Assembly (NCBI GenBank): GCA_034722435.1
Contig: JAYENX010000022.1
Span: 1-42,025 of the forward strand
From: Nanobdellota archaeon
GTDB taxonomy: Archaea > Nanobdellota > Nanobdellia > Woesearchaeales > JAHWHD01
Reading direction: 5' to 3'
Length of the DNA: 42,025 bases
Positions 3,444-23,081 of the stretch are shown in pieces. A program made the position numbers and the translations under genes. The notes under the pieces were generated by a model. The model was not told the origin of the DNA, did no database searches, and saw only the letters and a program-made list of their open reading frames with translations. Position 1 is the stretch's first letter. Each line of letters begins with the position of its first letter.

Positions 3444-5531
3444 GTGTTTATAATTATTGATAAAAGAGGTCAGATAACTATATTTATAATTATAGGTATC
3501 ATGATTCTGGCAACAGTAGGTATAATTGTCTATGTTCGTTATTCTGCTGTTAAGCCCTCTGTTGGTATTTCTGAGATTGTTCCTGAAGAAGTTGCACCTG
3601 TGAAAGTGTTTGTAGAAGAGTGTCTGCAGCAAGTTGCCACTAGAGGTTTAGAAATTGCGGGTGAACAAGGTGGATACATTGATCCTGAGTCGTGGGGATT
3701 GATTTATAGAGAGAATGATCCTACAAGTGGAAATGCAATAGAATTTACGTCTTTAGTTCCGTATTGGTTTCATCTAGGTGCCGATAATGATTGTTCAGGT
3801 ACTTGTTGGTTTGGTTCAGAGAAACCACCTCTTAGAATTGAGGACGGTAATCCGAGCATACAATCAATGGTTGAACAATATGTTCTTGATAATATTGACC
3901 AATGTTTTAGAAATTTTAACAGTTTTCCACAGTATGAAGTTGTAGTAGAAGGCGAGAAAGAAATAACTTCGATAATCGCACGAAATAATGTAGTGTATAA
4001 TTTTAAACTACCTCTAAAAATCGATTCAGGCTCTACAAAGGCAAAAATTTCTCAGTTTAGCTCAACAGTACAGATCGCATTGCCTGCGCTTTATGATTTA
4101 TCATCAACAATTACAGATACGCAAGCGCAGTATTGTTTCCTTGAACATGACGTTATTGAACTTATATCTATTTTTTCTGGTGTTGAAAAAAATAAGTTTC
4201 CGCCAATGTCGGAAATGAGAATGGATAGTACTCCTGTAATATGGTTTACGCGTGATGTAAAAGAGAAAATGCAGGAACTTCTCCAGAGCTATATTCCACT
4301 TCTACAAATGGAGAATTCTTTAAACTTTAAACAGTTAAGAGTGCCTGACACTGTAGCTAATAGCGATATGATTAATAGAATGTATTCTAACATGATAATT
4401 CCCCTTGACGCAACAGGTTATACTGTATATTTTGATTATTTATCTGACTGGGATATATATTTTGATATGGGTAAAGGTAACATGATAAAACCTGACGGGT
4501 TCAGTGTGCCGTTCTTAGGTTTTGGAATGCAAAAGTATGATTTTGGTTATGATGTTAGCTTTCCCGTAATTGTTACAGTTAATGACCCTACAGCTTTAGG
4601 GGGTCGAGGTTATAATTTTAAGTTTGCTCTTGAAGAAAATATTCGTAATAATAGGTGTTTAGAATCTAATTTTGAAAATTTAGATATATCAAAAGTTTCA
4701 GGTACGTCCATGCTTTGTGATAACGATAAACGTAACTCTGGGTTAATTAATATAAGTGTTAAAGATGAAGAGGGTATACCGGTAGTAGGAGCGTTCATCA
4801 CGTTTGCATCTGATGATGCATGTCCCCTAGGTACAACTGACGGCAGTGGGGAGTATGCAGATAATTTCCCGGTAGCTATTGGAACTTTAAACATCGATCA
4901 TCCTAATTATTTAGCAACTACAAAAGCATATTCAACAAGTTTAGATGAAGATGATGAACAAGACATAGTATTACAAAAATCTAGGAATGTAAAACTTAAA
5001 ATCCTTAAGAAAAATTATATTAGACAACCAGGATGGGCATTCAATAATTTTGAACTTGGATTAGATTTCAAAGAAGAGGCGATATTAACTTTTACAAGAG
5101 TTCCTGAAGAAGGCGAAACAGAATATACAACTATTTCAAGGTATTCTGGTGAAATGTCGTCTAAAAATGAATTTAGTGATGTTGAACTTTATCCAGGAAC
5201 ATACGATGTAAGCATATTGTTATTTTCTTATCGACCTTTAAGAATACCTGAAAGTCATAGAGAAGAAGGTGGATTCTTTGATTCTGTTGAGTTTACAATA
5301 CCAGAAGTTAATATGGAACAATGGCAGTCTGGTGGTCTGGAGATGAAAGAACTGTCTGGACGTTGGACTGTGTCAGCTAATGACCTTGATAGAGCAGATC
5401 ATATTAAATTTTATACCATAGGATTTTATCAAAATGATATGTTAGCTATAGAAGACCTTGATCATATGTCGAAGCTTGAACAGTATACTCAAGTTAATAG
5501 ACCGTATCTAGAACCGAGGATAGAAATATGA
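3444..5531 (+). CDS. Large membrane-anchored protein with class III (prepilin-like) signal peptide; paralogue A1
   Basis: KRGQITIFIIIGIMILATVGIIVYV N-terminus; conserved PVKVFVEECL...GEQGGY; beta-rich body with a transthyretin/carboxypeptidase-regulatory-like segment (ISVKDEEGIPVVGAFITF). True start uncertain (GTG 3444 or ATT 3453). Confidence 0.85.
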   Translation: MFIIIDKRGQITIFIIIGIMILATVGIIVYVRYSAVKPSVGISEIVPEEVAPVKVFVEECLQQVATRGLEIAGEQGGYIDPESWGLIYRENDPTSGNAIEFTSLVPYWFHLGADNDCSGTCWFGSEKPPLRIEDGNPSIQSMVEQYVLDNIDQCFRNFNSFPQYEVVVEGEKEITSIIARNNVVYNFKLPLKIDSGSTKAKISQFSSTVQIALPALYDLSSTITDTQAQYCFLEHDVIELISIFSGVEKNKFPPMSEMRMDSTPVIWFTRDVKEKMQELLQSYIPLLQMENSLNFKQLRVPDTVANSDMINRMYSNMIIPLDATGYTVYFDYLSDWDIYFDMGKGNMIKPDGFSVPFLGFGMQKYDFGYDVSFPVIVTVNDPTALGGRGYNFKFALEENIRNNRCLESNFENLDISKVSGTSMLCDNDKRNSGLINISVKDEEGIPVVGAFITFASDDACPLGTTDGSGEYADNFPVAIGTLNIDHPNYLATTKAYSTSLDEDDEQDIVLQKSRNVKLKILKKNYIRQPGWAFNNFELGLDFKEEAILTFTRVPEEGETEYTTISRYSGEMSSKNEFSDVELYPGTYDVSILLFSYRPLRIPESHREEGGFFDSVEFTIPEVNMEQWQSGGLEMKELSGRWTVSANDLDRADHIKFYTIGFYQNDMLAIEDLDHMSKLEQYTQVNRPYLEPRIEI

Positions 5532-22320: not shown

Positions 22321-23081
22321 TGTTCAAAAAAACTTTCCAGAATATGAAGGATAAATTTGTATTGTTACCTGTAGCTACAGATATAATATTTATATTGTTG
22401 TTCGGGTTTGTGTTTGAGTTCATAAGAAACAGGGTGGCTGTAGAGTTACAGAATATAGTTAAAATTATTGGAAGTAGTTCAATTGAGATTGCACCAGGGA
22501 TATTTAGTTATTCTACACTTATAGAAAATCTTAAACAGATGCCGGGGTTTACGGGCAGTTTTAATGCAATAATTGTTAATATAATTTTAATGTTCATACT
22601 GATGTTCATATTATGGGTTAGTCTTGAGTCTGTGAGCTGGTGGACAGCGTATAAACTTAACAAAATAAAGATAAAATTTAATGATTTCTTGAAAAAGTTT
22701 TTTTTAAAATCTATAATATATTTTGTGATTGCTCTAGTTACAATGTTTGCAGTGATGAGGGTTGCTCTAGGGATTACACTTAAAGGAGATATTGTTGCTG
22801 GCGAAGGAATATTTATATTATTCTGGATAATACTTTTCGCTATTTTTGTTTTTCTTTTTGTCAGCTATTCAAGGATAGATAAAAAGTTTAATATTAAGAA
22901 TTGGAAAGTTTTAATACTCGGAGTAGTAGGTTTTTTAATCTTAATCGGGCTTGATAAAATCGCAAAGCTTATAGCTGGGTGGAATTATATTTTAATGCTA
23001 ATATTTGGTCTTGTGATAATATTGCCATATTTAACATATTTTAGAATGTACTTGATAAACCATGAAAATAAAAAAAGTTAA
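22317..23081 (+). CDS. Polytopic membrane protein (~6 TM); paralogue C2
   Basis: MFKKTFQNMK...VATD aligns with MFKESFRNVK...AGMD of 11761..12546; six hydrophobic segments. Confidence 0.78.
   Translation: MMFKKTFQNMKDKFVLLPVATDIIFILLFGFVFEFIRNRVAVELQNIVKIIGSSSIEIAPGIFSYSTLIENLKQMPGFTGSFNAIIVNIILMFILMFILWVSLESVSWWTAYKLNKIKIKFNDFLKKFFLKSIIYFVIALVTMFAVMRVALGITLKGDIVAGEGIFILFWIILFAIFVFLFVSYSRIDKKFNIKNWKVLILGVVGFLILIGLDKIAKLIAGWNYILMLIFGLVIILPYLTYFRMYLINHENKKS

Follow-up and report, generated by a model that had tools for sequence, protein, structure and literature searches.

A conserved, anciently duplicated surface module with giant exported proteins and variable tips in Nanobdellota archaea

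Contig JAYENX010000022.1 of a Nanobdellota archaeon (GenBank assembly GCA_034722435.1; contig C22 of the source genome), analysed over its full length of 42,025 nucleotides and called the window below, contains a locus of ten genes at positions 3444–23081 of the forward strand. The locus is genuine and deeply conserved, a surface module that was duplicated long ago and in which three protein families recur: A, with a prepilin-type N-terminus; B, a giant exported protein; and C, a six-helix membrane protein. On balance, we lean slightly towards the interpretation that it encodes a polymorphic complex on the cell surface, anchored by pilin-like proteins, through which the archaeon makes contact with bacterial walls. 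The cluster occupies about 1.5% of the source genome (1.3 megabases, 94.5% complete, probably from a brine metagenome), and among named proteins the nearest belong to metagenome-assembled genomes of Candidatus Woesearchaeota and Nanoarchaeia.

The first module starts with A1 (positions 3444–5531, 695 amino acids, GTG start), the putative pilin-like anchor, followed by B1 (5528–8683, 1051 amino acids, 28 cysteines), a Sec-exported giant without anchor. Next come x1 (8685–9239, 184 amino acids), an N-terminally anchored protein, and x2 (9236–11764, 842 amino acids), an exported protein of the X family with threonine- and proline-rich linkers. C1 (11761–12546, 261 amino acids), a six-helix membrane protein, closes the module, and a spacer of 36 nucleotides (12547–12582) separates it from the second. 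There, A2 (12583–14469, 628 amino acids), again pilin-like, is followed by the Sec-exported giant B2 (14466–20576, 2036 amino acids, 37 cysteines), which ends in a Peptidase_M23 domain, by y1 (20576–21406, 276 amino acids), a SpoIIM-family membrane protein, by y2 (21403–22320, 305 amino acids), an exported single-pass protein with a small cysteine-rich ectodomain, and by C2 (22317–23081, 254 amino acids), the six-helix paralogue of C1. Six junctions are ATGA overlaps (A1/B1, x1/x2, x2/C1, A2/B2, y1/y2 and y2/C2), B1 and x1 are one nucleotide apart, B2 and y1 share TAATG, and the 36-nucleotide spacer is the sole real one. Hydropathy analysis gives one N-terminal hydrophobic helix in each of A1, A2, B1, B2 and x2, and six helices in C1 and C2. 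An earlier reading of the same DNA (the sequence-only reading) had listed ten co-directional genes with these junctions and this single gap, and six-helix proteins at the module ends; the open reading frame coordinates, lengths and strand match exactly, and the junctions and helix counts are confirmed.

The A family is nearly universal among relatives. With the A1 protein as query, 59 of 61 relatives give a match (a count that takes in the unpublished genomes G001 and G002, on which no other result rests); with the A-family profile, 192 of 201 high-quality genomes from all over the phylum do. Throughout the order of the window (Woesearchaeota-type, class Nanoarchaeia), the core genes are arranged as A1-B1-X-C1-A2-B2-C2; this arrangement was read directly in six genomes (G012, G027, G045, G006, G032 and G230), with variants or insertions in three more (G018, G020 and G040). 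At least 25 genomes contain two full-length A genes on one strand and a few kilobases apart, mostly 7–14. In other orders of the class, a single full-length A gene is located beside one giant B gene, often followed by a six- or seven-helix protein, and the adjacency of A and B, often with C, persists across orders at about 25–30% identity. An open reading frame of 2644 amino acids in G230, apparently a fusion of A2 and B2, is an artefact with a 100-N scaffold gap at the junction, and provides no Rosetta-stone evidence.

The genes between B and C behave differently from the core. No counterparts of x1, y1 and y2 were seen at these positions in the mapped relatives; these three are lineage-specific local inserts. 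Relatives keep one secreted X gene of the x2 family in module 1, with the C-terminal 200 or so amino acids of x2 conserved at the same position, and usually have nothing between B2 and C2. The sequence-only reading of two five-gene units in the same order is thus right as to the two modules; the conserved unit is, however, made up of three genes (A-B-C), plus X in module 1, and a conserved slot of two variable genes is not what the relatives show. The SpoIIM-family protein y1 has three paralogues elsewhere in the genome. The cysteine-rich ectodomain of y2 (about residues 118–166) recurs in proteins on contigs C31 and C45 of the genome (tblastn E-values of 6e-8 to 2e-5).

The modules are related to each other by descent. 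A1 and A2 are full-length paralogues (BLASTP E = 8e-36, profile-profile E = 4e-79), and when profiles are built with relatives, C1 and C2 align over their full length as well (hhalign probability 97.9%, E = 4.8e-13), being too diverged for BLAST (E = 0.74). Cross-family pairs (A/B, C/A and B/C) gave profile-profile scores at noise level. For B1 and B2, also proposed to be paralogous, the relationship is weaker and partial only: the N-terminal signal plus immunoglobulin (Ig)/fn3 region (residues 1–373) aligns by profile-profile comparison with E = 1.7e-9, as does, collinearly, a cysteine-stapled hairpin (B1 residues 891–952 with B2 residues 1043–1105, hhalign E = 2.6e-4). A hidden Markov model (HMM) of the B2 core also matches the C-terminal hairpin of six B1 proteins (E-values of 5e-6 to 2e-3); in the window, this match and hhalign place the segment homologous to the start of the B2 core at residues 885–962 of B1 (positions 8180–8413). 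A quick tree of 48 A proteins, made without bootstrap, groups A1 (support 82), A2 (97) and the proteins of other orders (99), to be read as a three-way split without branching order. Since the A1 and A2 clades each span the order of the window, the tandem duplication is no younger than the diversity sampled within that order, in keeping with its earlier description as ancient.

The N-terminus of the A proteins fits the archaeal class III (prepilin-type) signal pattern. Of 94 A-family N-termini with complete starts, 93 show some 20 hydrophobic residues behind a small-residue site, and around 80 read [KR][GAS]Q. In A1, the KRGQ motif precedes a hydrophobic helix (residues 10–28), a family-specific alpha/beta domain and C-terminal beta-sandwiches, with a weak CarboxypepD_reg match at residues 436–511. 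The public gene call of A1 begins 19 codons later (676 amino acids) and drops the KRGQ motif; all relatives back the upstream GTG. In the AlphaFold2 model of A2 (predicted local distance difference test, pLDDT, 85.5), a helix (residues 4–33) and a flexible break lead into an alpha/beta domain (residues 47–375) and two beta-sandwiches (residues 398–628). The sandwiches resemble transthyretin-like, CarboxypepD_reg and CnaB domains (Z-scores of 6–8, up to 8.1), and for the alpha/beta domain (about residues 38–375) Foldseek and VIA-align gave no convincing partner. No sequence match for A was found in the PDB, and its cluster neighbours in the ESM Atlas are all Nanobdellota proteins, among them short forms of 250–295 amino acids.

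Class III signals with glutamine at position +1 are cut by EppA in Methanococcus (review PMC4858521). The source genome encodes a Peptidase_A24 protein (contig C36, 9449–9787; 58.5 bits, above the cut-off), two T2SSE ATPases and a second A24 gene (contig C28, 20278–21423) with an Arc_PepC match (E = 4e-6) and a weak A24 match. This second gene adjoins genes for a 1044-amino-acid protein with an A-like N-terminus and three further cysteine-rich proteins (C28, 12269–21423, read from loci L078 12269–19962 and L079 278–1423). Short A-like genes (227–278 amino acids; contigs C25 and C38 of the same genome, and G154, G194 and G298) are usually followed by a large exported, mostly cysteine-rich protein, the exceptions being the copy on contig C5 and one copy in G154; elsewhere than in the source genome, the short A-like clusters continue with small proteins whose N-termini are similar. 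On contig C25 (18759–24736; L076 3759–9736, reverse strand), a short A-like protein of 278 amino acids with a KRGQ start overlaps the beginning of a 1717-amino-acid exported protein with 85 cysteines and no B core, and this looks like another pair of a pilin-like protein and a giant. As short A-like genes usually precede large exported proteins, A-type proteins look like general partners of the latter. A conserved four-helix membrane protein of 141–143 amino acids (L080 5892–6317, L082 18729–19160) accompanies clusters of short A, giant and pilin-like genes in two genomes of other orders.

Both B proteins have Sec-type signals and no other hydrophobic segment. The N-terminal part of B2 contains fn3, Pur_ac_phosph_N, Big_6 and Glucodextran_B-type sandwiches, as do its orthologues. 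This is followed by the best-conserved part, the core (residues 1035–1400, positions 17568–18665), with ten cysteines invariant in 37 sequences. The model of the core (pLDDT 70.5) consists of a long helical hairpin with four invariant cysteines, a poorly predicted helical stretch and a confident Ig-like sandwich. Fold searches with it yielded only generic Ig and macroglobulin sandwiches (Z-scores up to 7.5), and no PDB sequence match was found; a likeness to Kir channels (template modelling scores of 0.14–0.18) looks like a topological coincidence. Neither for A2 nor for the B core do these search results amount to proof of a new fold. The core marks giant open reading frames of 1,400–3,200 amino acids in 70 of 151 class genomes, the hairpin being the most widely conserved element. 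Column conservation in B2 is 0.45–0.50 in the core and 0.12–0.33 after about residue 1400, and a database relative (P0046) is 52% identical to B2 up to residue 1673, after which it has an unrelated tail without M23.

The C-terminal third of B2 is therefore variable, as the idea of swappable distal domains had foreseen, and at least seven kinds of murein-related domain occur in this region among relatives. In the window, it contains the Peptidase_M23 domain (residues 1915–1998, positions 20208–20459), found by Pfam at 52.6 bits against a cut-off of 28.7, with both motifs intact (HxxxD as HRGMD at residues 1916–1920, HxH as HLH at residues 1990–1992) and with matches to M23 chains in the PDB (E = 3.7e-6); it is apparently an active endopeptidase. 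A Pfam census of the last 600 residues of 48 B2-type giants found twelve families across their C-termini: SLT (three times), Peptidase_M15_4 and Peptidase_M23 (twice each), Amidase_3, Peptidase_M74, Glucosaminidase, 3D, SH3_3/SH3_4, GDSL and CAP, with a murein-related domain in 12 of the 48. In the order of the window, the tips are M23 (this window), Glucosaminidase (G040) and M74 (G064); in other orders they are 3D with GDSL (G207), SLT (G299, G082 and G148), SH3b (G144), Amidase_3 (G107, E = 4e-42), M15_4 (G219 and G103) and M23 (G287). Jointly, these domains target the glycan strand, the amide bond between N-acetylmuramic acid (MurNAc) and L-Ala, and the stem peptide or cross-bridge.

In the source genome, at its 94.5% completeness, no Mur ligase and no transpeptidase were found, so that the substrate of the M23 domain would be foreign, bacterial peptidoglycan. 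The genome has no SLT domain and contains only two M23 domains, both in the window. The second belongs to a protein of 187 amino acids without signal peptide (positions 25816–26379, forward strand), encoded three genes past the cluster. As a spare tip cassette it was rejected: it is only 32% identical to the M23 domain of B2 over 68 residues and is no recent copy. No immunity gene follows B2, the next gene being SpoIIM-like here and C2 in relatives; none is expected, because the genome lacks murein synthesis genes.

The C proteins offer fewer leads. An alignment of 16 members contains no invariant polar residue; it has a Gly-x-x-Trp motif plus basic residues after the second helix and an aromatic/arginine motif at the end. 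Pfam gave no match for true C members, and the nearest named clusters in the ESM Atlas (GPDPase_memb, UPF0259 and DUF7847, at 0.84), which hint with low scores at a GPDPase_memb/UPF0259-like membrane fold, are a lead only. At most, C may have a scaffold or assembly role. Kinship of C to SpoIIM was rejected (hhalign probability 0.1–0.4%), and a SpoIID/SpoIIM/SpoIIP-type pairing was not borne out either, the SpoIIM-family y1 being absent from this position in all relatives mapped.

The core is made only of exported or membrane proteins, which agrees with the membrane-anchored surface assembly proposed at the outset. In the arrangement we favour, A would be made with a class III signal, probably cut after the glycine by an A24 peptidase, after which its N-terminal helix would hold it in the membrane or within a stem like a short pilus. 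B would leave by the Sec route and, having no anchor of its own, be held at the surface by A, C or both, with C serving as a membrane platform of six helices that has no catalytic residues. In B2, the N-terminal two thirds (the fn3/Ig array and the disulfide-stapled hairpin core) would form a constant arm, and the C-terminal third an exchangeable working end, here M23. Since the archaeon makes no murein, the enzyme would have to act on a bacterial wall, so as to open that wall or to allow tight docking to it. Module 1 (A1-B1-X-C1) would be an order-specific duplicate, most likely an adhesive or structural arm. As a more specific proposal, which is possible but tentative, the two modules would together form a pilus-tip-like, two-armed device that attaches to and opens a bacterial wall: module 2 as the ancestral cutting arm with tips matched to the murein of the partner, module 1 as a Woesearchaeota-type adhesive arm, and both fed by type IV pilus genes elsewhere in the genome. 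If so, it would be a machine dedicated to the contact of an archaeon with a bacterium, and no known secretion or adhesion system would be homologous to it.

Several observations weigh against a pilin-anchored complex for bacterial walls. Neither A1 nor A2 matches a pilin family in Pfam (Pilin_N, class III signal/DUF361; E ≤ 0.01), and the A2 model does not show the canonical pilin fold, its 330-residue alpha/beta domain being unlike a pilin head. The cluster has no ATPase or channel gene that would back the secretion machine offered as one option by the sequence-only reading, and the window no pilus ATPase or platform gene. In B1, no enzyme domain was detected, and the protein ends just past the shared hairpin. 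Murein-related domains were recognised in only 12 of the 48 B2-type giants and, in the order of the window, in only 3 of 29 (28 relatives plus the window); with so few of them, wall cutting may be an add-on rather than the core function. What links A, B and C is only that their genes stay adjacent in relatives, and in this genome unrelated housekeeping genes overlap tightly as well. A multimer prediction of A2 residues 37–628 with the B2 core, made without control runs, scored 0.00 and speaks neither for nor against contact.

These points bear on three other explanations. The paucity of recognisable enzyme domains in B proteins makes a serious rival of the possibility that A, B and C form a core envelope scaffold, that is, a coat or coat-anchoring complex with occasional enzymatic decoration. 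Near-universal presence in the class, a chromosomal position between housekeeping genes such as those for methionyl-tRNA synthetase (MetRS) and enolase, and the lack of catalytic residues in C also fit it. We nevertheless consider it unlikely, as the highly variable C-terminal third of B2 is ill suited to a lattice protein, and nearly every domain found targets murein, a polymer absent from these archaea. A more ordinary coat candidate also exists in a separate exported protein of about 780–800 amino acids with few cysteines, conserved in relatives and on contig C3 of the same genome (C3 49146–51542; L082 4008–6413; L083 10558–12882; L024 1576–3897); it lies near clusters of short A and giant genes in relatives and is a possible coat (S-layer) protein.

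It is less probable still that the giants are cell-tethered feeding enzymes that would release amino sugars and peptides from free murein debris, with no cell contact involved. The domains found do cover the glycan strand, the amide bond of MurNAc to L-Ala, and the stem peptide or cross-bridge, and recycling of cell material by DPANN archaea has been proposed (PMC9723730); such a task, however, would hardly call for a constant arm in proteins of 1,400–3,200 amino acids and a dedicated pilin-like partner, most members have no recognisable hydrolase, and muropeptide uptake genes are lacking from the cluster. The least credible explanation in our view is that the ten genes encode independent surface proteins that are merely syntenic and form no machine. 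It draws on the linkage of A, B and C being one of adjacency only, and on the gene overlaps, which are general in this genome: C2 and enolase overlap by 20 nucleotides and enolase and iPGM by four, so that tight packing runs on past the cluster into housekeeping genes, is a general style of the genome and is no proof of a stoichiometric complex, the sense in which the overlaps had been taken before. Chance synteny sits poorly with the persistence of A-B adjacency, often with C, across orders at 25–30% identity, with the joint duplication of the whole unit in the same gene order, and with the short A-like paralogues that again precede large exported proteins.

The flanks of the cluster are housekeeping genes, with MetRS upstream and enolase, iPGM and the small M23 peptidase downstream. 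Further on, a RimK-like ATP-grasp gene has next to it, on its downstream side, one for a small retropepsin-like 'Zn_protease' (PF05618), the partner with which RimK is usually paired (positions 26982–28415, reverse strand), and an open reading frame of 840 amino acids (36677–39199, forward strand) combines a PfkB-family kinase (residues 47–310) with a complete S-adenosyl-L-homocysteine hydrolase (residues 374–839).

The giant component of the system is partly in the literature. Castelle et al. 2021 (PMC8204110) describe proteins specific to Woese- and Pacearchaeota, of up to 3,000 amino acids and with a murein lytic-transglycosylase-like domain, and propose attachment to bacterial hosts or walls; Vigneron et al. 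2022 (PMC9723730) and a 2025 survey (PMC12352652) extend this to 'vampiristic' and antibacterial readings. B2 shares with these giants (PMC8204110; also PMC9723730 and PMC10936187) the lineages, size range, export, a murein-cutting domain and the proposed wall attachment, and B2-type proteins with SLT domains are present among our relatives as well. The likeness of B2 to fam00969 of Castelle et al. 2021 is one of lineage, size and SLT domain only, not of sequence. To the one family with one domain type described in those papers, the locus adds two partners, the fixed pilin-like A and the membrane protein C, as well as a cysteine-stapled core common to the enzyme-free B1, at least seven tip classes and an order-wide tandem duplication. 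In the parts of the literature covered, neither A nor C was found described as a partner of the giants, and the same goes for the hairpin core that B1 and B2 share, for the duplication and for the variety of enzymes at the tips. The sequence-only reading, which recognised no named system, therefore holds for the system as a whole, which is undescribed in these sources, but not for the giant family, already noted in 2021.

Among archaea that have not been cultured, Woese- and Pacearchaeota rank with the most widespread, and their hosts and mode of attachment are not known. All cultivated DPANN archaea need an archaeal host (PMC11291902), and the archaeon studied here is probably host-dependent. 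The locus occurs in nearly every genome of the class and would aim murein-specific enzymes outward from a murein-free cell. We regard the cluster as the best candidate for the means by which these archaea would grip or breach bacteria. It offers antigens for imaging, enzymes to be used on defined cell walls and tip types to be compared with co-occurring bacteria, and these handles would allow a test of life on bacteria, a way of life that no cultivated DPANN archaeon has been shown to follow (PMC11291902).

Among well-characterised systems, three invite comparison with the complex we favour. In one of these, the tip complexes of bacterial type IV pili and type II secretion systems, minor pilins occur together with a large Sec-exported non-pilin protein, PilY1 or PilC. 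The locus resembles them in pairing a protein with a prepilin-type N-terminus with a large, Sec-exported, anchorless partner, and in having the peptidase and ATPases encoded elsewhere; it differs in that searches gave no convincing sequence or fold match, that A is 630–700 amino acids long, that the window has no small pilin genes and that the system is known here from genes alone. Proteins with class III signals include the EppA-processed Epd pilins of Methanococcus maripaludis and the bindosome of Sulfolobus (PMC4858521). With these, A shares a basic residue, a glycine or alanine, glutamine at +1 and a hydrophobic helix, and the genome contains an A24-family peptidase with the archaeal C-terminal domain; unlike them, A is not matched by the class III signal family or Pilin_N of Pfam, and its ectodomain has so far been found only in Nanobdellota. 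In polymorphic toxin and effector proteins, which Makarova et al. 2019 are said to have described (cited in PMC12352652), constant N-terminal scaffolds reportedly bear variable C-terminal domains. B2 is similar in its constant scaffold, in a C-terminal region that changes from one close relative to the next and in the many enzyme families found there, and differs in having no immunity gene, in Sec export and in bearing wall hydrolases instead of nucleases or deaminases. As the nearest working analogy, we propose a type IV pilus tip complex combined with the logic of polymorphic effectors, in which a constant scaffold may present a variable tip.

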